Source of the DNA: Chloroflexota bacterium
GTDB lineage: Bacteria; Chloroflexota; UBA11872; VXNJ01
DNA: 64,000 nt
Assembly: GCA_965261345.1 (NCBI GenBank)
Contig: OZ253449.1
Location: 224,001 to 288,000 of the forward strand
Direction of reading: 5' to 3'
The notes beneath the pieces are model-generated. The model was given only the letters and a program-made list of their open reading frames with translations, searched no databases and was not told the DNA's origin. The position numbers and the translations under genes are program-made. This document shows positions 7,349-34,513 of this stretch, one piece after another. Each line of letters starts with the position of its first letter. Positions within the stretch are counted from its first letter, which is position 1.

Positions 7349-9194
7349 CTTAGAGCCCTTTAGGCAAGACTGCGCCGAGCGAACACCGGCGGGACTGGTG
7401 GGCATCTCTGATGACCGGATATAAATTGGGCGCCCTTGGAGTTGTTTTACGAAGCCCGGCGGCCAACTGCTCGATTCCGCGATTGCTGCAATCATGGCAG
7501 CAGCCGAATTCGGCTTCCCTTTTTGGCACGAGCCGCAGTAACAACGACGCCGCATGCATCGAGCATCAAATGCTCCTGCGGCCGCCATAGGACTGATTTC
7601 TTCCGTGGTGGGCGGCCCCGCAATCGCGCCAATTGGCCAGCCCAGCTCTGCAAAATGGATCGGTTACCGGGCGAACGTAAGACAAACGCCGATACGCAGG
7701 AGACCTGGAACGAGCCTGACGCTTCCAATGCCACCCAACAGATACCCGCGTAAAAGCATCGGTCCGGGATCTGCGTTTGAGGTCAACTACCCAGCCTGGA
7801 TGGCAGTTTCGGCTGTTGCCGCACTTCCACCGCTGCCCTTGGCCTTGATGTTGAAGCGTCCAGGTTGTGTCCCAATAGTTATGCAAAAAGCAGGCCCGTA
7901 AAAAGAAGCGGGCCACGGCGTCTCCTTAAATTCTTGAGTTAGCACAACTCGGAGCCTTAAGGGAGGCAACCAGTGACCCGATTGAAGAATAACCACAACG
8001 CTATTGACTGGCGCCAAGAGCTCAAAAGTGATCCCGAGCTCTTCCGCGGCATCATCCACCAGACCGTCCAGGAGATCGGAGGAAGCCGAGATGGACGAGG
8101 CGTTGGGAGCCGGTAAGAGTGAGCGTACCGCTGGCCGTCGCGGCTACCGGAGCGGCTACTACGGCCGCGGACTTATCACCCGGGTGGGCAAGATCAGACT
8201 CAGGGTGCTGACAGGACCGCCAGGGACGCTTTAGCACCGAGATCTTTAAAGCGCTACCAGCGCAGTGAAAAAGCCTTGGTGAGCGCCCTGGCTAAAGATG
8301 TACGTCCAGGGGGTATCGACCAGGAAAGTCAAGGCCATTACCGAAGAGCTGTGTGGTCACGCATTCTGAAGCCTCCAACATCTCCCGGATTAACAAGCAG
8401 CTAGATGCCGCTCTGGAAATTGCCCGAGCGCCCACTGGAGGCCAACTATCCCTACCTGATCCTTGATGCCCGCTACGAAAAGGTACGCGAGGAGGGAGTC
8501 ATCCGGTCCCAGGCGGTCCAGATCGCCATCGGCATCAACTGGGAGGGCAGACGCTCGGTACTGGCAGTCGAGCTGGTAAACCGTGAGAGTAAGAGCAGCT
8601 GGCGCGACTTTCTGTCCCGGATGCGCGATCGCGGCCTCAGCGCCGTGCAGTTTGTCGTTACCGATAACCACGCCGGACTAAAGCAGGCGATCGCCGAGTA
8701 CTTACCCGAAGCCATCTGGCAACGCTGCTATGTCCACTTCCTGCGCAATGCGCGCGACTACCTGCCGCGAAGGGCCGATGACGACTGTCTCCAAGAACTT
8801 CGCTGGCTCTACGATCGGCGCGATCTCTCCGAGGCCCGTCGGGACCTCTTAGCCTGGCTGGGCAAATGGCAGGGCCGCTATCCCAGGCTCTGCGACTGGG
8901 TAGAGAGCGGCATTGAGGAGACTTTCAGCTTTTACCGTCTGCCGCGGCAGCACTACAAGCACCTTAAATCCACCAACATGCTGGAGCGGTTAAACGAGGA
9001 GATAAAGCGCCGGACGCACGTGGTGCGGATCTTTCTTGGGTCGTGCGAGTTGCCTGCGCTTGGTCAGGGCGCTTGCGGTCGAACAGCACGAGAACTGGTG
9101 TTCGACGGCAGTTACTTTTGCAGAACTGACGACAGTTACTTTTGCAGCCCTATTGATATGACTGATTGGAGATCTCCCGACTGGAGACGCCGAT

Positions 9195-10685
9195 TTGGTC
9201 ACCGATCGACAAGTCACACTACTGAGGCTGCAACTGATGCAAGGCAAGAAGATGGCCACCGCCGCGGCGGTGGCCGGGATGAGCGCGCGCTCGGGCCATA
9301 ACTGGCGCGAAGGGAAGCTCCCGTCCGATAGCAAAAGGCAAGATCGCCACTGGCGCACCCACCCCGATCCCTTCGGAGGGGTATGGGAAGAGGAGGTCGT
9401 GCCGCTCCTGCAAAGCGACCGCAACGGGGTACTGCAGGCCACCACCATCCTGGAGCGGCTCTGCGGCAAGTACCCGGATCGGTTCTCGTCAGCACAACTG
9501 CGCACCCTGCAGCGCCGGGTCCGCGATTGGCGGGCGCTCTCAGGCCCCGACCGGGAGGTCTACTTCCCCCAGGTCCATCCGCCGGGAAGGGAGGCGCAGC
9601 TGGACTTCACCAGCGCCAGCAAGCTGGAGGTGACGATCGCCGGGACGCCCTTCCCGCATCTCCTGTTCGAGTTCGTGCTCTCCCACTCCGGCTGGCGCTA
9701 CGTCGAGCTTTCCTCGACCGAGAGCTTCATGTCCCTCAAGTCGGGATTGCAGCACGCTCTCTACGAGCTGGGCGGGACCCCGCAGATCATCCGTTCCGAC
9801 AACCTCTCGGCGGTCACCCACGAGCTGCGGAAGACCGGCGGCCGGACCCTGAACCGGACCTATCGCCAGCTTCTGGAGCACTACGGCTTAAAGTCAACTC
9901 GCACCAATCCGCGCAAGGCGCACGAGAACGGGGTCGTGGAGCAGGCCCACCGGCGGATGAAGAATCTTTTGCGGCAGGAGCTGCTGCTGCGCGGGAGTTC
10001 GGACTTTTACTGCGTCGGCGACTACCGGGACTTCGTGCTGGCGATAGTCGACAAAAAGAACCGGGCGGCAGCGGCCAGGACGGAGATTGAGCGCTCACAC
10101 CTTCGGCCCCTACCGCCGACTCCCCTGCCCGATTACGTCACGTACCAGGCTCGGGTGCGCAAATGGAGCACCATCAGGGTCTCCAATCGCACCTACACGG
10201 TACCACCGCGCCTGATCGGGCAAAAGGTGGAAGCCCGTCTCTACCCCGAGCACCTGGACGTCTACTACAAGGGAAGTTTCATCGAGCGCATCGAGCGCGT
10301 CAGCGGCGCCCGGCGCGCCCGCGTCAATTACCGCCACGTAATCGCCTCGCTGGTTAGGAAACCGGGCGCATTTGCCCGCTACCGCTGGCGCGACCAGCTC
10401 TTTCCCACCCTTACCTTCCGCCGCGCCTACGATGCGCTCCTGGGGTGGCGCGGCCGGCACAGCGCCGACGTCAATTACCTGCGCATCCTGCAACTGGCGG
10501 CCACAACCATGGAGGCCGACGTGGCCAGGGCCCTGGCCGGACTCCTGGATAAGGGCGAGCGCTTCGACTGTCAGGACGTGCGCGATCTGGTCGCGCCGCG
10601 CTCGCCGTCGATACCCGAGCTGGCATCCCTGGCAACACCCGACCTGGCAATCTACGATCGTTTGCTTACCGGGGCCCGACGATGA
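9195..10685 (+). CDS. istA: IS21 transposase IstA
   Basis: 496 aa with DDE motifs AQLDFT, RSDNL and ENGVVE; overlaps istB (ATGA). Confidence 0.95.
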   Translation: MVTDRQVTLLRLQLMQGKKMATAAAVAGMSARSGHNWREGKLPSDSKRQDRHWRTHPDPFGGVWEEEVVPLLQSDRNGVLQATTILERLCGKYPDRFSSAQLRTLQRRVRDWRALSGPDREVYFPQVHPPGREAQLDFTSASKLEVTIAGTPFPHLLFEFVLSHSGWRYVELSSTESFMSLKSGLQHALYELGGTPQIIRSDNLSAVTHELRKTGGRTLNRTYRQLLEHYGLKSTRTNPRKAHENGVVEQAHRRMKNLLRQELLLRGSSDFYCVGDYRDFVLAIVDKKNRAAAARTEIERSHLRPLPPTPLPDYVTYQARVRKWSTIRVSNRTYTVPPRLIGQKVEARLYPEHLDVYYKGSFIERIERVSGARRARVNYRHVIASLVRKPGAFARYRWRDQLFPTLTFRRAYDALLGWRGRHSADVNYLRILQLAATTMEADVARALAGLLDKGERFDCQDVRDLVAPRSPSIPELASLATPDLAIYDRLLTGARR

Positions 10686-11455
10686 CCGCGCCATCCGTTG
10701 CCGCCCGGCAGATAAAGCTCATGTGCAAGGAGCTGCGGCTGCCCACGATCGGGACCGAGGCGGTTGAGCGCTTCGTAGATGCCGGTCATGTCGACGCGCT
10801 CGATACCCTGCTCGAAGTCTTCTGCCAGGAGATGGACGATCGGCGCCAGCGCCGGGTGGACCGGCTGCGCAAGTCCTCCAAGCTCCCGCCGGGGAAGACC
10901 TGGGACAACTTCGATCGCCAGAACCTGCCGCCGCCGCTCAGCGCCCAGCTCCAGGACCTGCTCGAGGGTCAGTTCCTGGACGGGGCCGTCAACGTCCTGG
11001 CCTTCGGCCTGCCCGGGACCGGCAAGACCCATGCCCTGTGTGCGATCGGACACAAGCTGGTCGAGAACGGCCGATCGGTGCTGTTTGCACCCGCCTACCG
11101 GCTGGTGCAGGAACTTCTGGCGGCCAAGCGCGACCTGGAACTGCCCCGGCTGTTGCGCAAGCTCGACTACATCGACCTGATCATCATCGACGATCTGGGT
11201 TACCTGCCGCAGGGGACCGATGAGGCCGAGGTGCTGTTTACGTTGATCGCCGAGCGCTACGAGCGGCGCTCGATTGGGATCACCTCGAACCTGGTCTTTA
11301 GCGAATGGGGCAAGATCTTTCCCAACCCGATGGCCACCGCGGCGGCGGCCGACCGAATCGTCCATCACGCCGTGGTGCTTGAATTTGACGTACCCAGTTA
11401 CCGGACTGGGCTAGAGAAGGAGGAAATAATCCGGGAGAAAACTCTGCAAAAGTAA
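10682..11455 (+). CDS. istB: IS21 ATPase IstB
   Basis: Walker A GLPGTGKT, Walker B IIIDDLGY, TSN and DRIVHH. Confidence 0.95.
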   Translation: MTAPSVAARQIKLMCKELRLPTIGTEAVERFVDAGHVDALDTLLEVFCQEMDDRRQRRVDRLRKSSKLPPGKTWDNFDRQNLPPPLSAQLQDLLEGQFLDGAVNVLAFGLPGTGKTHALCAIGHKLVENGRSVLFAPAYRLVQELLAAKRDLELPRLLRKLDYIDLIIIDDLGYLPQGTDEAEVLFTLIAERYERRSIGITSNLVFSEWGKIFPNPMATAAAADRIVHHAVVLEFDVPSYRTGLEKEEIIREKTLQK

Positions 11456-11692
11456 CTGACGTTCCCTGCAGAAGTAACCGGCGTTGTTCAACTGGATTGA
11501 GGCCAGCCGCTACCTGAACATGGCATTCCTGAAAGAGCAACGCAGAGAACTGGAGTTGATCGTTACCGCCTAAATTTCAGCGAACAATCAAGCTAAATTC
11601 GATAAGGTGACGCCAAAGCTAATTGCAGAACTTTCGGCACATAACTAGCGTCCAAACCTTGGTGGGTTCAAGATGCTTTCAGGCGTGAAGGG

Positions 11693-12283
11693 ATGAGGCC
11701 CGCTCTCGATCAACCCACGGTCGGAGTCTTCGTCTTCGAAAAATCATGGCGTTTGTGGGATAAAGGCGATCTCGCCCGAAAGTGTTTGACCCTGGCCGCA
11801 TGCGGCGTGAATCGGTTCATGACGGAGACCTGGTTACCCGACCAAACCCTAATTGATACCGTTCACGATTACGGCATGGAATTTTGGACAAGCGTGTCAT
11901 GTTTCTCAGATCACGCAAATCCGCTCCGACCGTCGCGTTCCGAGTTGACGCCAATCACCCCGGCGGGAACCCCACGCGAGCAACAGGAGTGGTACGTCGG
12001 GCTCATTCCTACCGATGACGTCTACAACTCCTTCCTGGTGCGACGCTGTGAACACGTCGCCGCCGCATACAACGTCGACGGATTCGGACTTGACTTTATG
12101 AGATGGCCAATCCACTGGGAACTGGAATTTCGTCCGGGCCGTTCCCCTATCGACAGCTCCTTCGACCGCACATCACTGCAGAAATTTTGCCGGTTCGATC
12201 CTGGGATGCGAGATGATTTGGTTGGTGCGGAGGCAGCAGCGCACATTCTGACGGAGCGGTTGGGGAGTTGGATAGCCTTCAAA
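11693..12283 (+). pseudogene. Glycoside hydrolase-like TIM-barrel protein (GHL10/DUF187-like), 5' half
   Basis: DGFGLDFMRWP motif. Ends WIAFK at the IS21 target duplication and continues in frame at 19243. Confidence 0.65.
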
Positions 12284-12629
12284 TGATCAACGACAACTAT
12301 TCTGTCCGGTTCCCGTTGCCTCACCAAAAAATGTAACCGAAATTTGGGACCGTTTATTTGACTCCGATTGGCGCGATTTCACGTATGATTTCGGCGTTCT
12401 CAACTGTGGGCGGACACGAAAGATCGCCCATTGGCGGCCACGGAATTGCCCGCCCTAACGATCCTGCGGCCACGTAAAACTGCCCAAAAGCGACCACGAA
12501 GGAACCGTTAATCGACCTGATTTCTCGCTGATCTAGTAACCCGCCGGAAACCCTGACGGGCCCCCGGCGGAGGCTGCCCCGGTTTGACTTAGCTGGTTTC
12601 TCAACTCCAGCGGCAACCGGAATCGCCAT

Positions 12630-14120
12630 ATGAAATCTTCGGAGGAAGTAATGCGGATTCTCAAGGTCTACGATCGCACCCTTTCACTTAGGGCCACGGC
12701 CCAAGAATGCGGCTGCTCGCACCACACCGTGGCCAGCTACGTGCAAAAGCGCGCGCTGGGCCAATTGGGAGAACCGGTGCGCCGGCCCCGGTTATCGCTC
12801 ATCGACCCCCACCGCCCCCTTATCGACGACCTGGTGCAACAATCGCGCGGCCGGATAAGGGCCGACAAGTGCCACCAACGACTCATGAAGCTGGGTTACA
12901 CGGGCTCTGAACGCACCACCCGCCGGGCGGTGGCAAAAACCAAGCAGGCCTACAAAAAGCAAAACCGCCGGGTATTTCGGCCCTGGATAACCGAACCGGG
13001 CAAGTGGGCGCAGTGGGACTGGGCCAAGGGGCCGCCGGTAAACAGGGAGGCGAGCAACCTCTTCTGCGTCTGGCTGTCCTGGTCAAGGTACCGGGTGGTA
13101 CTGCCGACCCGGGACCGCCGACTGGAGACCCTGATCGGCTGCCTCGCCGAGGCCCAGTCCTGGTTCGGCGGCGTGCCCTCCAACTGGCTCACCGACAACG
13201 AGAAGACCGTCTCCAAAGAATTCGTGGCCAGCATCGCCGTCAGACACCCGCTGATGGTCAAGTTCGGGCGCTTCCACGGCTGCGCGATCGCCACCTGCCA
13301 GATAGCGGATCCGGCCACGAAGGGCGGTTCCGAGGCGACCGTGAAAATCGCCAAGGCCGATCTTGTCCCCACCGATCACAACCTGTTGCCGGAGTACTCG
13401 TCCTGGAACGAGCTGGCCGACGCCTGCGATGAATTCATGCGGCGCGTTAACACCCGTGAGCACTCGATCACCAAACGCCCCCCGATGGAAATGCTCGCAA
13501 TCGAACGTGATTCCCTGCACCCTCTGCCCAACCGCGTCTTCAGCGTCGCCCTGGGCAAGACCCGCACCGTCTCCGACACCTCCCTGGTGGCCTGGCGATC
13601 GGCCTGGTACTCGGTGCCGCACATCTATAGCGAGGAGATCGTCTGGGTGCGCGAACGCGGCGCTATGGTGATCGTGAGCGCCGAGACCGATCACGGCGTC
13701 ATCGAGGTGGCCCGACACCGGAAGGTCGGCCGCGGGCAGCGGGTAGTTGTCGATAGCCATTATCCGAAGACTCCGTCGGGACCGCTGGCACGCCGGCCAA
13801 GGCCGCGCAACCAGGTAGAGAAGGAGTTCCTGGCCATCGGCCCCGGCGCGGCGGTATGGCTCAGGGCCGCCTGCGCGGCCGGTGCCGCCCGGCTGAAGGA
13901 GAAGCTCGAGGAGATAGTCGAACTCTCGCGCCTTGACGGCTGTGAGGCAATCGATGCCGCCCTGGGGGTGGCGTCGGAGGTGGGGCGCTTCGGCTTCGGC
14001 GACATCGCCTCCATCGCCGCCGCCTCGAGCGGACCGCTGTACCAGGCGTCCGAGGACTCGTTCCTGCAGGACGGCACCGGCCGCTGGCAGGACTTCGGCG
14101 CAACCGGAGGCGACCGATGA
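12630..14120 (+). CDS. istA: IS21 transposase IstA
   Basis: 496 aa with N-terminal HTH and motifs AQWDWA, LTDNEK and TKGGSE. Confidence 0.94.
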   Translation: MKSSEEVMRILKVYDRTLSLRATAQECGCSHHTVASYVQKRALGQLGEPVRRPRLSLIDPHRPLIDDLVQQSRGRIRADKCHQRLMKLGYTGSERTTRRAVAKTKQAYKKQNRRVFRPWITEPGKWAQWDWAKGPPVNREASNLFCVWLSWSRYRVVLPTRDRRLETLIGCLAEAQSWFGGVPSNWLTDNEKTVSKEFVASIAVRHPLMVKFGRFHGCAIATCQIADPATKGGSEATVKIAKADLVPTDHNLLPEYSSWNELADACDEFMRRVNTREHSITKRPPMEMLAIERDSLHPLPNRVFSVALGKTRTVSDTSLVAWRSAWYSVPHIYSEEIVWVRERGAMVIVSAETDHGVIEVARHRKVGRGQRVVVDSHYPKTPSGPLARRPRPRNQVEKEFLAIGPGAAVWLRAACAAGAARLKEKLEEIVELSRLDGCEAIDAALGVASEVGRFGFGDIASIAAASSGPLYQASEDSFLQDGTGRWQDFGATGGDR

Positions 14121-14884
14121 GGCCCCCACAGGTAATCGACGAGGTGGTGGGCCAGCTGCGCACCCTGCGCCTGCCGCACATGCGAAAGGCCGCCCCGGAG
14201 CTGCTTAGGACCGCAAAGTCGCAGCGCTGGGATCCGGCCGAGGCGCTGAAGGCGCTCCTGGACGAGGAGATCGCCGGGAGGGCGGCCTCGTCGCGGGAGC
14301 TGCGCCGCAAGGCGGCCGGGTTTCCCTCAGGGAAGACGCTTGACAGCTGGGACGGCGAGCTCTCCTCGATCCCCGAACCCACCCGGCGATCGCTTATGAC
14401 CCTGGAATGGATAGAACGCAAAGAGAACGTGGTCCTATACGGTCCGTCCGGTACCGGCAAGTCCCATTTCCTGGAGGCTCTCGGCCAACTGGCGGTAGAG
14501 CGCGGCTACCGGGTGTCCTGGTTCGCGCTGGAAGAGCTGGGACAGCTGGTCAAGCGCCACCGGGTCGATGACTCGGTCGGCAGGGCGGTAAGAAAGCTTT
14601 TGAAGGCGGACCTGATCGTCATCGACGACATCGGGCTGCTGCCGGTAGGCCAGGAGACCGCCGAGGCGTTCTTCCGGGTAGTTGACGCCGCCTACGAACG
14701 GCGCTCGGTGGCCGTCTCCTCGAACTTGCATCCATCGGGCTTTGACGAGATCCTGCCCAAATCACTGGCCAATGCGACCGTGGACAGACTACTCCACCAC
14801 GCCCATGCCCACCCGACCTCGGGTGAGAGCATTCGCTTAACCCAGGCGATGGCCGGGCAAGGAGTGGCGCCGCTGACCGGATAA
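14117..14884 (+). CDS. istB: IS21 ATPase IstB
   Basis: Walker A GPSGTGKS and Walker B IVIDDIG. Confidence 0.95.
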   Translation: MRPPQVIDEVVGQLRTLRLPHMRKAAPELLRTAKSQRWDPAEALKALLDEEIAGRAASSRELRRKAAGFPSGKTLDSWDGELSSIPEPTRRSLMTLEWIERKENVVLYGPSGTGKSHFLEALGQLAVERGYRVSWFALEELGQLVKRHRVDDSVGRAVRKLLKADLIVIDDIGLLPVGQETAEAFFRVVDAAYERRSVAVSSNLHPSGFDEILPKSLANATVDRLLHHAHAHPTSGESIRLTQAMAGQGVAPLTG

Positions 14885-17000
14885 CCCTTGCCCGAAGTGA
14901 TGAAATGCTCGTCGCGGTAACGATTGCAGCGGCCCCGTCCAATACCGGATCCGGGCCGCTGCCGTGCATGCGGGCAAATTGGACGGTCTGCGCCACGGCA
15001 GGCCGCCTCAACCTGCCCGCCCGGAAATCGAATGCGGGAAAAGCGCCCCCGCCGCTGCGGGCCGATTGACGCCATGCGGCCCCCAATTCAGTCGATATAG
15101 ACAACATCTGCAAAAAGCATGGCCGCCAGGAGGCCCATACAGCGGTTCTGACGGGCGGTTGTGACCCCGGACCCTTGGCGCAAACCGGTTTGTGGCGGGC
15201 AGCTTTGGCCAAAATCGGGGTAGGAACAACTGACGCCGCCGCCGGAGAGGAGGTGTTCGGATCAGCCTGCGGCAGGGCGTCCAATTAGAGAAATCAGGCC
15301 GGTCGCGGCGCCTTCAACAAACTGCCCACGCATGGGCAGTTTGTTGGCCACCTATGTGCAGAGATACATGTCCGCCGGCGGGCACTTCTCAATGTCCGCG
15401 AACACTCAACCGCACCATCAGCACCGTTTACCACTCCGTATACAAGCTCTTTGGCCATCACCGACCGCCATTGCTTGAGCCTTCGCTGCAACGTCCGCAG
15501 CTGCTTGGGCCCGACGGCGTCGGGGTGATCACGCATGAGCACTTTCAGGATCTGCATGCCGCTGGCGTCGGGATGATCCTGCAGGTAGGTAAGCGCCGCG
15601 GGCCAGACGTGCTCTAGGGGGTCGGGGCAAGTCCGCCACCACCTGCGGCGCTTTCGTTTTGGACGGCGGGTCGGATTTGCATCGCCCTCGCGCCACAGAT
15701 GAGAGAGCTTGGCTAAGGAACTGCGACAGATCATCCTTTTGCACCTTGCTTCTTTCCTCGGGCGATGCCAATGTGGCCAGGGCCGACTGGGCCTGGCGGA
15801 TCTCGCTAAGGAGGAAGAGCGGATCCAGTTTGGAGCGGGATGCGCGCAACCGCTCCTTGACCTTTTCGGCAACGGCGGGGTGATCGAGCAGGCGCTGGCA
15901 GGGAGTTAGCGGACGGTCGTAGCGCTTTTGGGTTCTGGCTCCATAGCGCTGCTTGGAGATCAGTTTGAAAGACGGTTGGAAGAAATTGGTGTAGAGACCG
16001 ACTAAGGCAAAGAGTCGGGCCAGGGTCTGTCCGGCGATGAAGCCGGCAAAGCGTTCGTAACCGGCGAAGCGGCGTATTACGGCGCCGTTCTTCTGTTCGA
16101 TGTAGGCCTGATCGTTGGAGCGGTAGGCGCGTGAGCGGGTGAACTCGATTTCACGCTGCTGGCAGTAGTCAATCAGGGTCTGGGAGATAAAGGCGCTGTC
16201 GTTGTCAGTATCGATTCCAAGTATTGGCACCGGTACCCGCCCGGCTATCACCTCAAGCGCCTCGGTCACCAGCGTCTGCTCGCGGGCCAGCAGTGGAACC
16301 GCCTCCACCCAGCCCGAGGAAACATCGGTAACCGACAGGGACTGGATGAAGCTCCCGGCCATGTTGCCACCACAGTGGGCCACCAGATCTATTTCCAGGT
16401 AGCCGGGGTCGGGGCCATGCCAATCGGCAAACGTCCGGATCGGGACCTTGGCGTGATGACGGTTGCGGCGGCGGGGGTGACGCCGTCGACTGCTGCCGGC
16501 GGTCTTGCGGACTGGTTTGAGGAGGCGATCGATCGATGCCGGGCTGATCGCGAAGAGCTTGCTTTTAAGGTCCAGATCAAGCTGCAGGTGGCCATGCCCT
16601 TCCAGCGATTCGATCAGGCTGGGCAATATCGCTTGCAACCGTTTGCCGCAGATCCGATCGGCCGCTTCCCAGAGGATGATCAAAGACTCCCTGACGGCCT
16701 CGTCGTAGATGCGGTATGAGGACTTGGTGGGCGGTGCCGGAGCAGGGCTTGCAGCATTGCCCAGCAATCGGGTTGCGTATTTGCGGTTGTGGCCAGATAG
16801 AGCCACGAACTCGTTAAGGATTCCGCCCTTGTCGATCTTGGACGCCCTCGCATAGCGGCCCCTTAAGGCCGCTAGCAGCTCCTTCCGCACCGCCCGGCTC
16901 AGCTTCTTTCCTCGCATCGGTTGCCTCCCTGTGGATTTGGGTTACAAATCTAGTGAGGCAACGGCCCTGTTTGGGTTACAAAAACAGTGAGTCAATGCGC

Positions 17001-18428
17001 ACCGCCGCGGCGGTGGCGGGAATGAGCGAACGCAGCGGCCGCCGCTGGCGCAAAGGCGAGCTACCGTCGGATAAGAAAAAGCACCGGCGCCGCTGGCGCA
17101 CCCGTCCAGATCCCTTCAAGGGAGTCTGGGAAGAGCAAATCGAACCGCTGCTGAGAGTCGACAAGGATGCCGTGCTCTCGGCCAACACCATCCTGGAGTG
17201 GCTTGACCGCCAAGACCCGGGAAGGTTTGCTGCATCGCAGCTTAGGACCCTGCAACGCCGGATGCGCGACTGGCGGGCCTTAAACGGTCCCGACAAAGAG
17301 GTCTACTTCCCTTAAGGTTCCCCCGGGAAGGGAAGCGCAGCTGGACTTTACCAACGCCGGCAAGCTGGCGGTCACCATTACCGGCCAGGACTTCCCCCAT
17401 CTCCTGCTGAAAGTTCGTACTCTCCTTCTCTGGCTGGCGCTACGTTGAGATCGCTGATAGTGAGACCTTCTTAGCGCTAAAGCAGGGACTGCAGGGAGCG
17501 CTCTGGGAATTGGGCGGCTGCCCGCAGATCATCCGCTCCGACAACCTCTCGGCCGCCACCTACGAACTGCGAACTAGCGGCGGCAGGGACCTGAACCGGT
17601 CCTACCGTCAGTTGCTAGATCACTACGGACTGGGATCGACCCGCACCAATCGGGCAGCAGCGCACGAGAACGGGGTGGTCGAGCAGGCCCACCGCCGCAT
17701 CAAGGACGCCATTGCCCAGGAACTGATCCTGCGCGGCAGCTGCGACTTTACATCGCGCGAGGACTACTACGAATTTGTCAGGGAGGTTGTCGCGCGCAAG
17801 AACCGGCTGGCGGAGCCGAAGTCAGAGATTGAGCGCCCGCACCTCCGACCACTGCCGGCGGCGGCGATTCCCGATTACGTAAATTACCAGGCTCAGGTGC
17901 GCAAATGGAGCACGATCCGAGTGTTAAGCCGCACCTACACGGTACCACCGCGCCTGATCGGACAGAAGGTGGAGGTCCGTCTCTACGCCGACCACCTGGA
18001 CGTGTACTACAAGAGCCGATTGGTCGAGCGCCTAGAGCGCGCCACCGGTCCCCAAAGGGCCCGCGTCAATTACCGCCACGTGATCGGATCGCTGGTGCTT
18101 GGAGCCGGGCGCCTTTACCCGCTACCGCTGATGCGAACAGCTTTTTCCCACCCCTACCTTCCGCCGCGCCTACGATGCGCTACAGGGGTGGCGCAGCCGG
18201 CACTCGGCCGACGTCAACTACCTGCGCATCCTGCAATTGGCGGCCACTACCATGGAGGCCGATGTCGATAAGGCCCTGTCCAAACTCTTGGACCAGGGGA
18301 AGCGCTTTGACTGTCAGGACGTGCGTGATCTGGTCGCGCCGCGCTCGCCGTCGATACCCGAGCTAGCATCCTTGGCCACACCCGACCTGGCTGTCTACGA
18401 TCGCCTGCTCTTGCGGGTGAACCGATGA
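17001..18428 (+). pseudogene. istA: IstA, 5'-deleted and frameshifted
   Basis: Fragments in several frames are homologous to 9195-10685. The first ~20 codons are missing at the ISNCY junction. Confidence 0.9.
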
Positions 18429-19183
18429 CCGCGCCGTCAGTTGTCGCCAAACAAATGCAGCTAATGTGCAAGGATCTGCGGCTGCCCACGATCGGGACCG
18501 AGGCGGTAGAGCGCTTCGTTGACGCCGGACATGTTGATGCGCTGCCCACCCTGCTCGAAGTCTTCCGGCAGGAAATGGACGATCGGCGCCAGCGAAGGGT
18601 GGATAGGCTGCGCAAGTCCTCGCGCCTCCCGCCGGGGAAGACCTGGGATAACTTCGAGCAGCAGAAACTGCCGCCGCCGCTCAGGGCCCAACTGCAGGAC
18701 CTGCTTGAGGGCCAGTTCTTAGATCGTGCCGTCAACGTCCTGGCCTTTGGTCTGCCCGGCACCGCCAAGACCCATGCTCTGTGCGCGATCGGACACAAGC
18801 TGGTCGAATCTGGTAGATCGGTGCTGTTTGCTCCGGCCTATCGGTTGGTGCAGGAACTATTGGCGGCCAAGCGCGACCTGGATCTGCCCCGACTCTTGCG
18901 CAAGCTCGACTACATCGACTTGATCATCATCGATGACCTGGGTTACCTGCCGCAGGGGACCGATGAGGCCGAGGTGCTCTTTACCCTGATCGCCGAGCGC
19001 TATGAGCGGCGCTCGATCGGGATCTCATCAAACCTGGTCTTCTCCGAATGGGGCAAGATCTTTCCCAATCCGATGGCCACCGCGGCGGCGGCGGACCGAA
19101 TCGTCCATCACGCCGTAGTACTTGAATTTGACGTGCCCAGTTACCGGACCGGGCTTGAAAAGGAGGAGTTAAAGTCGGATTGA
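18425..19183 (+). CDS. istB: IS21 ATPase IstB with Walker A variant GTAKT
   Basis: Close paralog of 10682-11455. Confidence 0.92.
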   Translation: MTAPSVVAKQMQLMCKDLRLPTIGTEAVERFVDAGHVDALPTLLEVFRQEMDDRRQRRVDRLRKSSRLPPGKTWDNFEQQKLPPPLRAQLQDLLEGQFLDRAVNVLAFGLPGTAKTHALCAIGHKLVESGRSVLFAPAYRLVQELLAAKRDLDLPRLLRKLDYIDLIIIDDLGYLPQGTDEAEVLFTLIAERYERRSIGISSNLVFSEWGKIFPNPMATAAAADRIVHHAVVLEFDVPSYRTGLEKEELKSD

Positions 19184-19242
19184 AACCGGCCAAAATAATT
19201 GACGCACACCCGGCCAGAGTAATAGGCGTTCTTCACTTCAAA

Positions 19243-19719
19243 TCCCATGCCATTTCAACACTCACTGTCCGGTTGCAAAAGGCCATTAGCGCGAAAAGGC
19301 CGCAGGTCAGAACGGGAGTCTTCGTAGTCCCGGGGAATGACTTGGAGCGCAAGCGATTCGCGGGACAAGATGTCTGCGCGCTGGGCGCGATCGTCGACGA
19401 ACTGTTTCCAATGACGTATCACCGAATCGTTGAGCAAGACCTCCACTGGATCGGAGACACGGTGCGCGTTATCCGCTCAAAGACGGCGGCGCGGGTTACA
19501 CCGGTGATACAAATTAGCGCCGACGCGGCGTTTGCCGGCGGGGCCGACTGGGGCGCATCGATGAACCCCGACGATGCTTACGCGGCCCTTGAAGCCGGAA
19601 TTTCCGGCAGTGGTGGTGGCATCATCGTATTCCCTGGCGAGGCGCTGCTACTGGGTCCTAATGGTGACGCTTTGCAGGCCGTTGTGCGCCGGGTAAGAGC
19701 CAATTCAACCGTGGGTTGA
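19243..19719 (+). pseudogene. Glycoside hydrolase-like protein, 3' half
   Basis: Reads FK|SHAISTLTVRL...VDELFPMTYH, in frame with 11693-12283 across the target duplication. Confidence 0.65.
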
Positions 19720-30907: not shown

Positions 30908-32044
30908 TTGCCGGACCGCGAACTCCGGCGGTTGTTTACCGGCGGGGCAACTGAAACTGGACGGCCAAGGCCCCGGCTGGAGGCGTGCGGACCCCCTAGC
31001 CCGCATTTTGCACCAGCCCAGCCGATCAACCCGATTTAGGGCCGATTGGACTTGATCGGGTCTGATATGCGGTCGGAGCCGTCCATTTCTGTCTATTTTG
31101 CGACCGTTACCGGCCCCAGACTCTCCCGCAACAGCACATCCAGCCCATTTGCGGCGCCAATTGCCTGCATTGGACCCAGCGCGGCCGGGACCCTGCCTTC
31201 ACGGCGTCTTTAAGAGCGCCGGGTACTACCCCGGCGCCAGCCGGTAATGGGGAATCTTTAACAGATTTGCCAGGGCCCTGGCAAATTCCTCCTGCCAGGG
31301 AAAGGCCGTAGGCAATGCGAGCCAGATGCGGCGGTGGGTTAGCTTGATGCGGGCGGCGATCTTGAGCAGACGCAGACGCAGGGTATCACAGCGCAGATTG
31401 GCATTGGCGGTTCCCTTTAGCCCCAGCCGCCTTAAGGCCGCAAGCAATACGTAGGCAAACCCCGAGAAATACAGCCGCAGCTGATTGGAGCGCATGGCCC
31501 TGGAGGAGGTGCGGTCGGCGAACAGCCCCAGTTGCATCTCTTTCACCCTGTTCTCCATCTCGCCACGGGCGCAATAGAGCTTCTCGTAAAGGCCCTGCTT
31601 GCCGATACGCGATGAGGGCAGGTTGGTTACCACGAACCTGGGATTGGGACCCTTGCGCAGGTGCTCGGCTTTGGCCACCACCCGCCGCCGCCTCGACCAT
31701 GACTTAAAGGTCCGGTAGTAGAACCCCCGAAAGCGCCGGGACGGGGAACCGGTGGCGGCAGAGCGCCGCCGCGACTTTGCCAGCGCCTTGCCCAGCTTCT
31801 GCTGCAGGCGGGGGTTGCGGGCCAGTCCGAAGACGTAGTAGAGACCCTCTTGCTCACACCAGGTCATGGTCGCATCGCGGGCAAAACCCGAGTCGGCGCG
31901 CAGGATGATCTCGGTAGCCGGCCAGGCCTTCCTGATCCGGGCGATGAGCGGGGAGAGTTCTTCCGCCATCCCCGCTCCGGGATCGCGGCTGGCGCCTTTT
32001 AGACGGCAGAGCAGCAGGTGATCCGCGACAGTTACTTTGTCCGG

Positions 32045-33728
32045 TTCCCGTTGCCTCACCAAAAAATGTAACCGAAATTTGGGACCGTTTATTTGACTCC
32101 GATTGGCGCGATTTCACGTATGATTTCGGCGTTCTCAACCGCACCATCAGCACCGTTTACAACCCCGTATACGAGCTCTTTGGCCATCACCGACCGCCAT
32201 TGCTTGAGCCTTCGCTGCAACGTCCGCAGCTGCTTGGGCCCGACGGCGTCGGGGTGATCACGCATGAGCACTTTCAAGATCTGCATGCCGTTGGCGTCGG
32301 GATGATCCTGCAGGTAGCTAAGCACCTCGGGCCAGACGTGCTCTAGGGGATCAGGGCATGTCCGCCACCACCTGCGGCGCTTTCGTTTTGGACGGCGGGT
32401 CGGATTTGCATCGCCCTCGCGCCACAGATGAGAGAGCCTGGCCAGGAACTGCGACAGATCATCCTTTTGCACCTTGCTTCTTTCCTCGGGCGATGCCAAT
32501 GTGGCCAGGGCCGACTGGGCCGCTCGGATCTCGCTAAGGAGCAAGAGCGGATCCAGTTGCAAGCGCGTAGCGCGCAACCCCTCCTTGACCTTTTCGGCAA
32601 CGGCGGGGTGATCGAGCAGGCGCTGGCAGGGAGTTAGCGGACGGTCGTAGCGCTTTTGGGTTCTGGCTCCATAGCGCTGCTTGGAGATCAGTTTGAAAGA
32701 CGGTTGGAAGAAATTGGTGTAGAGACCAACTAAGGCAAAGAGTCGGGCCAGGGTCTGTCCGGCGATGAGGCCGGCAAAGCGCTCGTAACCGGCAAAGCGT
32801 CTGATTACGGCGCCGTTCTTCTGTTCGATGTAGGCCTGATCGTTGGAGCGGTAGGCGCGTGAGCGGGTGAACTCGATTTCACGCTCTTGGCAGTAATCGA
32901 TAAGGGTCTGGGAGATAAAGGCGCTGTCGTTATCCGAGTCAATGCCGAGCACTGGAATCGGTACCCGCCCGGCTATCACGCCAAGTGCCTCGGTCACAAG
33001 CGTTTGCTCGCGGGCCAGCAGCGGGACTGCCTCCACCCAGCCCGAGCACACATCGGTAACCGACAGGGACTGGATGAAGCTCCCGGCCATGTTGCCACCA
33101 CAGTGGGCCACCAGGTCTATTTCCAGGTAACCGGGGTCGGGGCCATGCCAATCGGCAAACGTCCGGATCGGGACTTTGGCGTGATGGCGATTGCGGCGGC
33201 GGGGATTACGCCTGCGACTGCTGCCGGCGGTCTTGCGCACTGGTTTGAGCATCCGATCGATCGATGCCGGGCTGATTGCGAAGAGCTTGCTTTTAAGGTC
33301 CAGATCAAGCTGCAGGTGGCCATGCCCTTCCAGTGATTCGATCAGGCTGGGCAATATCGCTTGCAACCGTTTGCCGCAGATCCGATCGGCCGCCTCCCAA
33401 AGGACGATCAAAGACTCCTTGACGACCTCGTCGTAGATGCGGTATGTGGACTTGGTGGGCGGTGCCGGAGCAGGGCTTGCAGCATTGCCCAGAATTCGGG
33501 TTGCGTATTTGCGGTTGTAGCCGCTAAGGGCTACGAACTCGTTCAGAATCGCGCCCTTCTCGTTCTTGCTCGCCCGCGCGTAGCGGCCCCTTAAGGCCGC
33601 TAGCAGCTCCTTCCGCACCGCCCGGCTCAGCTTCTTTCCTCGCATCGGTTGCCTCCCTATGGATTTGGGTTACAAATCTAGTGAGGCAACGGCCCTGTTT
33701 GGGTTACAAAAACAGTGAGTCAATGCGC
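32045..33728 (-). mobile_element. ISNCY-like element, copy 2, intact, bracketed by two 26-bp IS21-type IRs (32019-32044 and 33729-33754)
   Basis: Boundaries come from comparison with copy 1. One subterminal repeat at the left end and two inverted copies at the right end. Confidence 0.88.
32089..33645 (-). CDS. ISNCY-like DDE transposase with C-terminal IstA-like HTH domain
   Basis: 518 aa; DDE core LEIDLVAH, GIDSDND, AYIEQKN; C-terminal WRTCPDP...QLRTLQRR..W; GGGAGG RBS. Confidence 0.88.
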   Translation of the reverse strand: MRGKKLSRAVRKELLAALRGRYARASKNEKGAILNEFVALSGYNRKYATRILGNAASPAPAPPTKSTYRIYDEVVKESLIVLWEAADRICGKRLQAILPSLIESLEGHGHLQLDLDLKSKLFAISPASIDRMLKPVRKTAGSSRRRNPRRRNRHHAKVPIRTFADWHGPDPGYLEIDLVAHCGGNMAGSFIQSLSVTDVCSGWVEAVPLLAREQTLVTEALGVIAGRVPIPVLGIDSDNDSAFISQTLIDYCQEREIEFTRSRAYRSNDQAYIEQKNGAVIRRFAGYERFAGLIAGQTLARLFALVGLYTNFFQPSFKLISKQRYGARTQKRYDRPLTPCQRLLDHPAVAEKVKEGLRATRLQLDPLLLLSEIRAAQSALATLASPEERSKVQKDDLSQFLARLSHLWREGDANPTRRPKRKRRRWWRTCPDPLEHVWPEVLSYLQDHPDANGMQILKVLMRDHPDAVGPKQLRTLQRRLKQWRSVMAKELVYGVVNGADGAVENAEIIREIAPIGVK

Positions 33729-34513
33729 CCGGCCAGAATAACTGTCGCTGTTCAGACGGTCCTTGCCGGTCAAATCATCCTTGCCCGCCATCAGCGCCAG
33801 CAGTGGATCGGCGCGCAGGACATCGTGATCGTTTAAGTCCTCATAGCCCATTGCCAGGGCCAGGATGCGCTGGGCTACCAGCTCACCGGGTAAGTGCTCA
33901 ATCCGGTGGGGTTGGCGAAAGTCCGCAAAGCAGGATGGGAGACGGGAGAGCAGGCCGATGCGCTTGTCCACCTCGCGCAGGAGCAGGGCGCCGCCGTCGG
34001 AGGTGAGGTGTCCGCCGTCAAAGCTGGCCGTTACCTTACGGCGGCCAACGTTTGAGAATTCGAGCTGGGTCGGATTAGAATCTGCCATCATGGTTCGCCG
34101 TCTTTGCGGGTTGATTTGTAAGACCTTCAATTATCGCTTGGCGGCGACCTGATTTAAGGAGTGGACAGGGATTTCGGACCCCTTCAGGGCCCGATTTGGA
34201 CATGCCCTGAGACTGGCTTAATGAAGCAGTCCGGGACGTCGATGAGCACTCACTTACCTGGGTGCCCCGCGAGCTGTTGCCAAGCACGAGAATCAGCTTC
34301 TTGCAGCCGGTTACACACTGTCATTGCCGATCGGGCGTCAATGAGCGTTGAATAAGGCCCTTCCGAATCAGTGATCAACCGCGGATGGGTGCCTGGCGGC
34401 GGGCGGCTGATGAAATATCCGGGCTAGTTCGGATGTCTGTAGAAGCCCAAGCGGCGGGTCAAGGTGAAATGCCAGTCCAATTTGGTGGGCCAACTACCGA
34501 TCAAATTTACCGG

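Follow-up and report, generated by a model that had tools for sequence, protein, structure and literature searches.

DDE transposases usually choose their sites loosely, or leave the choice to separate proteins or RNAs. With Tn7 (TnsD/attTn7) and in the tethering of retrotransposon integrases, a module that recognizes DNA or protein directs the DDE enzyme to a safe position lying at a fixed offset. Partridge and Hall reportedly described in 2003 an insertion sequence that homes into the terminal repeats of another transposon family. The ISNCY group, to which elements of the kind analysed below have been assigned, is a holding class of ISfinder, a bin and not a natural family.

We analysed a 64,000-nucleotide stretch of a Chloroflexota genome (the window), in which a one-gene insertion sequence (the core) encoding an rve-type DDE transposase lies between two 26-bp repeats of IS21 type at 32019-33754. 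In Tn7 and in tethering, steering is the task of a separate protein or host factor, whereas the module proposed at this locus would be fused to the enzyme and derived from another transposase. The locus resembles the IS4321-like elements of IS1111/IS110, insertion sequences that target one constant position within the terminal repeats of another transposon family. In these, however, a non-coding seekRNA guides a DEDD transposase (according to excerpts of PMC11187229), whereas the enzyme here is an rve DDE transposase and not a DEDD one, the selector that we propose is a protein domain which the victim's transposase also has, and the invaded ends become the tips of a new mobile composite. The IS1202 family (ISAjo2 relatives), formerly in ISNCY, likewise inserts at a constant distance from a site bound by protein, dif/pdif, but its target is a Xer recombination site and not a transposon tip; this comparison is by description only, and the excerpts of PMC10132070 on which it draws mention no domain common to the element and the target's binding protein. 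With IS21 itself, the locus shares a transposase tail homologous to the linker and HTH-2 of IstA, flanking repeats in which ~10 AT-rich bp separate two GC-rich boxes (excerpts of PMC10122671), and composite duplications of 5-8 bp, as against 5-7 bp for the IS21 copies here. It differs from IS21 in having one gene, no istB and no beta-barrel by Pfam, and in carrying the DNA-reading module at the C-terminus instead of the N-terminus. In the open-access literature searched, we found no prior description of ISNCY-type or y4rL elements at IS21 terminal repeats.

Results

A one-gene core between IS21-type repeats

The composite at 32019-33754 (Table 1) splits an IS1380-family transposase gene, of which profile positions 93-169 are absent between the two flanks; reading these flanks, we found no target duplication around the composite. 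The high-side boundary of the core is identical across 14 genome copies, and the low-side end is the same kind of repeat (GTTGCCTCAC-N6-TGTAACC type) at which tail-less relatives also end. The TT that separates this end from the repeat probably represents IS21 nt 27-28, since TTTT continues after the 26-mer in intact IS21 copies. Both 26-mers are the exact L1 and R1 of an IS21/core chimera at 1.035-1.037 Mb of the genome: the low-side one equals the left tip of the chimera at 1.037 Mb, and the high-side one equals the right tip of an IS21 remnant (1035115-1035140), which runs on into the IS21 interior. The structure is best explained as an IS21-family element in which the core has taken the place of the interior between the outermost repeats, L1 and R1, a reading that we hold to be reasonably probable.

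Table 1. Coordinates of the composite, its flanks and the IS21 elements of the window.
Feature	Position	Strand	Remarks
Intact IS21, A type	9099..11490	+	istA 9195-10685, istB 10682-11455; 5-bp duplication ACTGG
L1 of second IS21 (A' type), invaded by the other window core copy	12284..12309	+	7-bp duplication pairs with right end 19210-19235
Second core copy	12312..16999	-	Frameshifted; split by other-type IS21 at 12405-15404
Rest of invaded IS21 A'	17001..19235	+	~istA codon 21 to right end; R2 19186-19209, R1 19210-19235
IS1380-family transposase gene, 3' part, outer flank	31226..32018	-	NF033539 222.5 bits, profile positions 170-418
IS21-type terminal repeat, L1 type, 26 bp	32019..32044	+	Low side of core; 25.5 bits by PWM vs genome 99.9th percentile 8.9
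TT spacer	32045..32046	+	Read as IS21 nt 27-28
Core insertion sequence, ~1.68 kb	32047..33728 (end 33727/8)	-	Own inverted ends, one gene
Core low-side end	32047..32072	+	Terminal inverted repeat and one subterminal repeat, GTTGCCTCAC-N6-TGTAACC type
Transposase gene, 518 aa	32089..33645	-	rve DDE core
Tail-coding stretch, residues 402-486	32188..32442	-	Homologous to IstA residues 31-115; Pfam PF27155 Y4rL_C
Core high-side end	33668..33727	-	Two subterminal repeat copies, terminal ...CAATGCG
IS21-type terminal repeat, R1 type, 26 bp	33729..33754	-	PWM 28.2 bits
Same IS1380-family gene, 5' part	33755..34130	-	NF033539 profile positions 2-92

The transposase ends in a domain homologous to part of IstA

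The rve domain spans transposase residues 172-267 (Pfam, E 6.6e-9), and D177, D238 and E274 are invariant among 24 homologues. The first-pass annotation had aligned the C-terminal end of the protein with the N-terminal region of IstA, and this alignment proved sound: the tail matches the IstA encoded at 9195..10685 at 39/90 positions (43% identity, pairwise BLASTP E 2e-13), IstA frames in a sister genome (44% identity) and the IstA of an invaded Caballeronia IS21 (38%). On the IstA domain map, taken from excerpts of PMC10122671, the equivalent of the tail is the end of HTH-1, the basic linker and HTH-2; these excerpts have HTH-2 reading CS1 and the linker reading the AT-rich middle of each terminal repeat. 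The tail is conserved in the aligned homologues, with the basic linker and a QLRTLQRR stretch among the best conserved columns, and the precomputed annotation places PF27155 on 119/120 of the best homologues and on the 95%-identical cluster. In a tree, 8 IstA modules split from 78 tails with support 97/91, so the sharing of the domain is old and not recent. A sequence search of solved structures gave no match for the tail; the same search with the window IstA matched IS5376 IstA only via its catalytic and barrel part (residues 129-366). An exhaustive search with the tail alone returned mainly short fragments.

Regarding classification, an rve core followed by Y4rL_C places the enzyme in the rve + PF27155 class. 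Its full-length homologues (46% identity), on rhizobial and Novosphingobium plasmids, link it to ISNCY: among the 25 homologue records listed, 4 are labelled 'ISNCY family transposase' and 10 'DDE-type integrase/transposase/recombinase'. The NCBIfam ISNCY models did not match the transposase. Membership of IS21 is contradicted by the single gene in 32019-33754, where tblastn found no IstB match, and by the IS21 equivalog model NF033546 (16.5 bits vs a cut-off of 160); the IS481 model NF033577 also stayed below its threshold (39.3 bits vs 224). The two 26-mers do score as IS21 tips (25.5 and 28.2 bits) and begin with TG, and we read them as remnants of the invaded IS21.

The flanking repeats match the tips of resident IS21 elements

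A consensus of the two flanking 26-mers, allowing up to 3 mismatches, matched the window at exactly 12284-12309 (+), 32019-32044 (+) and 33729-33754 (-), and nothing in 100 shuffles of the window (0.00 matches expected). For the whole genome, a loose regular expression gave 622 matches and was too unspecific to use; a repeat matrix (PWM) was built from 16 IS21 repeats not adjoining a core.

It had been claimed that 12284-12309 is a real IS21 end with a 7-bp duplication, and indeed CTTCAAA at 12277-12283 recurs at 19236-19242, just beyond the IS21 right end at 19210-19235. Altogether, three chimeras have a duplication that pairs the low-side 26-mer with an IS21 right end (7 bp, 6 bp and 5 bp). 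The intact IS21 at 9099..11490, whose IstA scores 192 bits with NF033546 (cut-off 160), has two repeats per end of the same family as the 26-mers. A sister genome (one contig, without the transposase) contains four IS21 with open 504-aa istA frames; the three of these that were read share a left end whose 26-bp L1 is 23/26 identical to the window type, and this L1 is 26/26 identical to the repeat adjoining a core fragment in another sister genome (G003). The first-pass annotation had further noted that the repeats differ while the core stays the same: the two window cores are 94-96% identical and their low-side 26-mers differ at 6/26, and more generally repeats differing at 6-9/26 flank cores that are 94-96% identical, yet match resident IS21 tips identically. 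Since the duplications pair the 26-mers with IS21 right ends and intact IS21 copies end in the same way, these comparisons support the 26-mers as genuine IS21-type terminal repeats. The opposite order of events, in which IS21 inserted beside a core, was rejected: the core lies within the IS21 duplications, and where no core is present the IS21 right end is intact.

Core ends adjoin the inner edge of the repeats

Adjacency to a repeat, claimed for three of the four window junctions at nt 26, holds at these three, but the exact position does not: the junction falls at nt 26-28, with a spacer of 0, 1 or 2 T between 26-mer and core end (TT in both window copies, three T in one fragment). At the fourth junction, 16999/17000, the core is joined directly to ~codon 21 of a truncated istA with no 26-mer, and ~120 nt of IS21 A' are missing between nt 28 and istA codon ~21 as compared with the length of intact sister-genome IS21. 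The IS21 at 12405-15404, inside this second core, has its own CTCAAC duplication. All five A' IS21 remnants of the genome lack the 5' part, and 4/5 are truncated at a core end.

Scored with the matrix, the low ends of the core (transposase 3' side) lay above the 99.9th percentile of the genome background in 9/10 cases in this genome and 10/10 in two sister genomes. The flanks are not random, since 19/20 low ends lie 0-2 nt from the inner edge of a repeat where 0.1% would be expected per end; 13 different 26-mers occur among these 19. High ends passed the same threshold in 4/14 cases in this genome and 4/7 in the two sister genomes. The same junction geometry was found in another phylum and in metagenomes. 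In this genus and in Burkholderiaceae, the core thus lands at the inner edge of IstA-type repeats, either 26-28 nt from the IS21 tip or beside the second repeat.

A survey of relatives with and without the tail, suggested by the first-pass annotation, used 369-429 aa frames from 11/301 Patescibacteria genomes as the tail-less set and 9 bits as the flank threshold. No tail-less flank exceeded 9 bits (0/10 upstream, 0/11 downstream), as compared with 27/69 upstream and 22/81 downstream flanks of tail-bearing relatives; adjacency thus goes with the tail (49/150 vs 0/21), although tail and host are confounded in this comparison because the tail-less set comes from one AT-rich phylum. By this correlation, the tail would select the target.

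Both the core and the composite are mobile

The core is an insertion sequence of its own that moves alone, with duplications of 3-5 bp. A copy at genome 2060458-2062139 has no 26-mer on either side, its site is empty in three sister genomes and it is flanked by a 3-4 bp duplication. On Caballeronia pSBC2-5, the core interrupts the right end of an IS21 that is otherwise intact and flanked by a TSD, splitting an inverted repeat pair at its central CCGG. Three related IS21 copies, including that of a Paraburkholderia relative, have this repeat pair unbroken; in this comparison of filled and empty sites, both flanking repeats belonged to IS21 before the core arrived. These two cases show that the 26-mers are not the element's own termini in all copies; the first-pass annotation had named the opposite outcome as fatal to its proposal. 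A clean, simple insertion into an IS21 end was seen only once (L163); most other insertions lack 30-2100 nt of target on one side. Several core copies have unmatched flanks. For the copy at 1.60 Mb, the empty-site comparison identified one flank as another repeated element and the other as unique to this genome.

The repeat-core-repeat composite also transposes as a unit, with the repeats as its tips and duplications of 5-8 bp. Most metagenome relatives examined have such repeats at both core ends: a crude motif found the repeat at 51/71 and 41/61 core ends (vs 14.7% of random windows), and with the matrix 34/63 and 15/26 core ends exceeded the 99th percentile. Composite tips of the form TG...CA with 5-7 bp duplications were seen in 6/64 loci, and for a Mesorhizobium composite with an 8-bp duplication, a related IS66 provides the empty site. 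By eye, the repeat type goes with the core lineage among the metagenome relatives. IstB lies beside only 2/80 metagenome loci, so most composites are not in full IS21 copies. The proposal of an IS21-targeting element is thus upheld in that the repeats are genuine IS21 ones and the core lands at their inner edge, but it is incomplete, as it foresaw neither repeats at both ends nor mobile composites. Because the composite itself is mobile, the tail may serve end recognition instead of, or besides, target choice: the repeats play two roles, as targets of the core and as working termini of the composite, and the tail could act in one or the other.

Discussion

In the mechanism that we propose, the tail would bind repeats in target DNA and direct integration to their inner edge, being a homologue of the IstA linker and HTH-2, with which IstA reads the outer half of each terminal repeat. 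On the promoter-side end of the core, target DNA may then be lost, trimming the invaded IS21 to L1-core-R1, a shell that could be moved by IstA/IstB in trans or by its own enzyme via the tail. Taken as a whole, the best explanation, which we favour with some confidence, is that the core targets IS21 repeats via its IstA-like tail and that the composites then move. A more elaborate version, which we put forward tentatively as having somewhat less than an even chance, sees the family as an IS21 hyperparasite that acquired the IstA repeat-reading module long ago, integrates at the inner edge of repeats, deletes inwards, wears the outermost repeats of its victim and is moved like IS21.

It could be argued that the 26-mers are the family's own terminal inverted repeats, so that the true insertion sequence is the 1.74-kb unit, the tail recognizes its ends and the likeness to IS21 reflects shared ancestry of domain and site, with no targeting and with core-only and IS21-embedded copies as accidents. 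The repeats on both sides in most metagenome relatives, the TG...CA tips with duplications, the Mesorhizobium composite with its empty site, the apparent pairing of repeat type with core lineage and the family-wide conservation of the tail would all fit. Yet both repeats pre-exist in the IS21 of the empty/filled pair, the core-only copy has its own duplication and empty site, and divergent repeats beside nearly identical cores match resident IS21 tips; moreover, three duplications join a repeat to an IS21 right end and the repeat-core spacing is not constant (0 to 2 nt), which makes this account unlikely in our view.

Still less probable is that the tail, as a copy of IstA HTH-2, reads no DNA and brings the enzyme to IS21 ends by docking on the IstA bound there. 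All invaded elements examined are IS21 copies with the homologous module in their IstA, and excerpts of PMC10122671 describe HTH-2/HTH-2 and HTH-2/DDE contacts in the IstA tetramer; but IstA meets IstB via its beta-barrel and not via HTH domains (excerpts of PMC11208146), a barrel that the transposase lacks by Pfam. In addition, the columns aligned with the DNA-binding region of IstA are among the best conserved, and the invaded IS21 copies of this genome are dead while the junctions remain precise. As for a mere pile-up of insertion sequences with junctions left over from recombination, the genome is indeed rich in them (the window composite splits an IS1380-family gene, and an IS21 has inserted into the other copy) and several copies have unmatched flanks, but the constant edge position of 19/20 low ends and the recurrence of this geometry in another phylum and in metagenomes leave such an absence of specificity with only a very slim chance.

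If targeting through the tail is true, a one-gene element owes its precise targeting to an end-reading domain from another transposase, which would be a natural case of the design that engineers attempt, a DDE transposase retargeted by a fused, borrowed DNA-binding domain. It would also be a transposon that preys on one transposon family and then reuses the tips of its victim; in this genome, the IS21 subtype concerned is disabled, with 5/5 copies truncated. The family is large (at least 5254 proteins) and almost unannotated, its members being labelled 'transposase family protein', 'hypothetical protein' or 'ISNCY'; as core and composite each have a real boundary of their own, a rule for this nested structure would improve the annotation of insertion sequences.

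The element and its core

The element at positions 32019-33754 of the window is built of two nested mobile units: a core of ~1.68 kb (32047-33727/8), bounded by its own inverted ends with a single gene inside, and a composite in which 26-bp repeats (26-mers) flank that core. IstA-type repeats receive the core at their inner edge, and target DNA on the core's high side, opposite the transposase 3' side, is lost repeatedly. The only Pfam match in the transposase is the rve integrase core (residues 172-267), with D177, D238 and E274 invariant across an alignment of 24 homologues; no NCBIfam transposase model reached its cut-off for the 518-aa protein (IS481 39.3/224, IS3 26.1/160, IS21 16.5/160). 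Both 26-mers of this copy lie outside the core and are inverted relative to each other. On the outside this copy is flanked by an IS1380-family transposase gene in two pieces, covering profile positions 170-418 and 2-92, so that ~77 residues are absent, and no target duplication was found around it. The window (G000:C1:224001-288000) lies within a 2.39-Mb one-contig genome whose relatives are Chloroflexota MAGs.

Coordinates of the features discussed (window positions unless marked as contig positions)
Feature	Position	Description
Transposase gene	33645..32089, minus strand	single gene in 32019-33754, 518 aa
GTTGCCTCAC-N6-TGTAACC type repeat of core, low-coordinate end (transposase 3' side)		1
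GTTGCCTCAC-N6-TGTAACC type repeat of core, high end		2
IS21 A' (targeted subtype)	12284-19235	
CTTCAAA duplication	12277-12283; 19236-19242	second copy immediately outside IS21 right end
Host gene halves (ORFs)	11693-12286; 19180-19719	no NCBIfam match; join marked by 7-bp duplication
Second transposase gene copy	15294-16917	frameshifted, 462-aa + 192-aa ORFs, tail out of frame; PF27155 missing from precomputed Pfam list of 462-aa product
IS21 of other type	12405-15404	IstA at 12630-14120
Other-type IS21, copy ending at window start	1-300	compare 14606-14905
Intact A-type IS21	9099-11490	IstA at 9195..10685; left end (9099) within ORF 8405-9301
298-aa ORF	8405-9301	presumably a Mutator/IS256-type transposase look-alike
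A' breakpoint, window copy		~istA codon 21
A' breakpoint, 0.16 Mb copy		start of tblastn match to IstA, residue 230
A' breakpoint, 1.035 Mb copy		start of tblastn match to IstB, residue 161
Right tip of 1.035 Mb remnant	contig 1035115-1035140	
Repeat-less core copy	contig 2060458-2062139	intact 519-codon frame, 26-mer on neither side
Inverted repeat pair	contig 75796-75843 (outside window)	48 bp

The 26-mers match IS21 ends

Judged by sequence, the 26-mers are IS21 terminal repeats. The first-pass annotation had placed them at three core junctions, and their consensus matches those three places only, with none expected by chance. Its reading of the first as a real IS21 end with a 7-bp duplication was also confirmed: CTTCAAA is duplicated outside both tips, and A' is therefore one IS21 interrupting a host gene. 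The left 26 bp of A' are cut off from the remainder by a second core copy, itself interrupted by an IS21 of another type, and at the fourth junction the core is joined directly to a truncated istA.

BLAST found about a dozen core copies or fragments in the genome. In three of them the low end adjoins a 26-mer and the high end joins A' interior, each at a different breakpoint. A separate duplication (7 bp; 6 bp, GGCGTG; 5 bp, CTTGG) encloses each of these chimeras, linking its 26-mer to the right end of the IS21. A fourth remnant, at 1.299 Mb, adjoins a core fragment; the 5' part is absent from 5/5 A' remnants, four of which end at a core end. On its high side, the window copy carries a 26-mer identical (26/26) to the right tip of the 1.035 Mb remnant, which runs on into IS21 interior; the 26-mer on its low side is L1, the outer left repeat, of that same chimera.

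In G006, a one-contig genome of the same genus, the DNA search with the core gave no match and the protein search only matches of the tail to IstA. This genome holds four IS21 in which istA is an open frame of 504 aa; the three that were read have a common left end amid different flanks, with a 26-bp L1 followed directly by the second repeat, L2. A core fragment in the sister genome G003 adjoins a repeat identical (26/26) to the G006 L1, which matches the window A' type at 23/26.

The other-type IS21 is present in four copies genome-wide (99.8-100% identical), one ending at the window start and one having hit the second core copy. Its IstA has no likeness to the tail, and no core end was seen beside it in the listed core flanks.

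Junctions are precise on the low side

Core ends were scored with a 21-column matrix from 16 IS21 repeats, none adjoining a core; these few repeats came from the window, the genome, G006 and two Burkholderiaceae plasmids, and the threshold (8.9 bits) was the score exceeded by 0.1% of 300,000 positions drawn at random from the genome. Low ends lay above it in 9/10 cases in the own genome, the sole exception being the repeat-less copy, and in 10/10 in the sister genomes G002 and G003; for high ends the counts were 4/14 and 4/7, these kin genomes not being independent of each other. The gap between repeat and core was 0-2 nt at scored ends, except in one poorly aligned case, and 13 different 26-mers occurred at 19 low ends while the cores were 77-95% identical. 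The 0-2 T between repeat and core agree with the stretch of T next to L1 in intact IS21, which points to several separate junction events. High ends that lack a repeat all stop at exactly the same core nucleotide and continue into the inner part of an IS21, into that of another core copy (G003:2336903) or into unrelated DNA. Several junctions, and all duplications outside the 64-locus metagenome scan, were read by eye.

At G003:C1:2335363-2338591 (L124, L126), a core high end is fused to position 141 of a second copy, which retains its own high-side repeat. The low junction is precise and target DNA is lost, as with IS21, the victim here being the family's own composite.

Core and composite each move

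The insertion site of the repeat-less copy is uninterrupted in three same-genus genomes, with a flank overlap of 3-4 bp (ACG or CACG), and the core alone therefore inserted with a 3-4 bp duplication. On plasmid pSBC2-5 of Caballeronia sp. SBC2, an intact IS21 whose istA and istB are both annotated is followed by a core homologue (47% identity), and a 6-bp duplication, CCGAAT, encloses the pair. The Paraburkholderia pOLGA1 IS21 (89% identical) and two further relatives are uninterrupted at the core position, which is the central CCGG of an inverted IstA-type repeat pair just inside R1 (the outer right repeat), and the core duplication is 4-5 bp. These sites form a clean empty/filled pair for core insertion into an IS21 end, and they come from a different phylum. 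Strain SBC2 has another copy, encoding an identical transposase, in an IS21 of 90% identity; the low end of this copy lies at the R1 inner edge and ~70 nt of target are gone. The IS21 right ends on Burkholderiaceae plasmids (L163-L166) bear a third, inverted IstA-type repeat over the istB stop codon, forming a palindrome with the second right repeat, R2.

Of 8000 candidates scored, at least 5254 are related to the transposase at E <= 1e-5; these relatives are ~510 aa long, and 119/120 of the best carry PF00665 plus PF27155 (Pfam name Y4rL_C). We examined the best 80 of 580 confirmed metagenome loci (45-56% identity) and 16 genome loci, in which IS21-like repeats usually lie on both sides of the core, sometimes as a tandem pair on the high side. 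In the metagenome loci a crude motif was present in 51/71 flanks on the high side and 41/61 on the low side, compared with 14.7% of windows chosen at random; 34/63 high and 15/26 low flanks exceeded the 99th percentile of the matrix, whose training set covered just two lineages and which overlooks repeat types that have diverged. IstB adjoins 2/80 metagenome loci. Duplications of 5-7 bp outside TG...CA repeat tips were seen at 6/64 loci with both core boundaries, many with too little flank, and on Mesorhizobium amorphae pM0123d a repeat-core-repeat unit sits inside an IS66 with an 8-bp duplication, at a position uninterrupted in the M. huakuii IS66. These outer duplications and the empty IS66 site show that the composite is also a mobile unit. 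The counter-case named in the first-pass annotation, that the 26-mers are the element's own termini, holds for many copies but not for all. One Rhizobiales contig (L006, 1628 bp) is one entire core and starts exactly at the core high-side terminus, a break expected in assembly if that genome's copies have a common core and different immediate flanks.

The tail and IstA

The likeness of the tail (residues 402-486) to IstA, first noticed by eye, was borne out by alignment with the A-type IstA (90 residues, 43% identity, E 2e-13). W..G, WRT..DP..W and LRTLQR..WR are invariant or nearly so in 23 tails and IstA, and in some homologues the likeness reaches IstA residue 1 (tblastn). For the IstA of IS5376, PMC10122671 describes HTH-1 (residues 1-39), HTH-2 (55-104) and a minor-groove linker between them; in every repeat HTH-2 reads the GC-rich box on the outer side and HTH-1 the inner one, and two repeats per end are required in vitro. 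Because the window IstA aligns with it from residue 129 onward only, the tail was mapped as 'linker plus HTH-2' by position and domain order. The domain had been proposed to be shared or captured. In a tree of the shared module, one branch (support 97/91) splits 8 IstA (Chloroflexota, Burkholderiaceae) from 78 tails, so that the sharing is old and single, and not a recent capture from a resident IS21. In Caballeronia, the tail and the IstA of the IS21 that houses it share 38% identity.

Tail-less relatives (379-381 aa proteins in L010, L012 and L014; 369-429 aa frames in 11/301 Patescibacteria genomes) stop a few residues past the last shared helix. The core-type repeat forms the terminus of their elements, and duplications of 3-5 bp around them were read by eye. 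IS21-end adjacency was predicted to track with the tail, and it did: no tail-less flank exceeded 9 bits by the matrix (0/10 upstream, 0/11 downstream), as opposed to 27/69 upstream and 22/81 downstream at tail-bearing loci, a comparison confounded with phylum and base composition.

A model for targeting

We propose that the tail would bind the target repeat in the manner of IstA, with the inner edge left free for the catalytic core. An invaded IS21 could be pared to L1-core-R1 by deletions running inward, or by a further targeted hit on the opposite tip, and the window copy may represent the last stage of the series observed at 1.035 Mb. Such a shell would retain IS21-type tips and move with IS21-like variable duplications. 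Shell duplications are indeed variable (5-8 bp, vs 3-5 bp for the core), and because they are IS21-like they hint that the shell may be moved by IstA/IstB in trans. IstA-IstB contact runs via the IstA beta-barrel, according to PMC11208146; Pfam detects no beta-barrel in the core transposase.

Within the open-access papers searched, neither a DDE element guided by a domain that its victim's transposase also has nor the nested core/composite structure of this family was described; ISfinder and supplements may hold relevant entries. IS4321 and IS5075 likewise target the terminal repeats of a different transposon (Tn21-family), but are RNA-guided DEDD elements (PMC11187229); IS1202-family elements insert beside Xer sites (PMC10132070).

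Elsewhere in the genome, the inverted IstA-type repeat pair at 75796-75843 has a common central CCGG, nothing between and no duplication, with the geometry of the IS21 right-end palindrome invaded by the core in Caballeronia. It could be the empty shell of a departed core, or an unused target.
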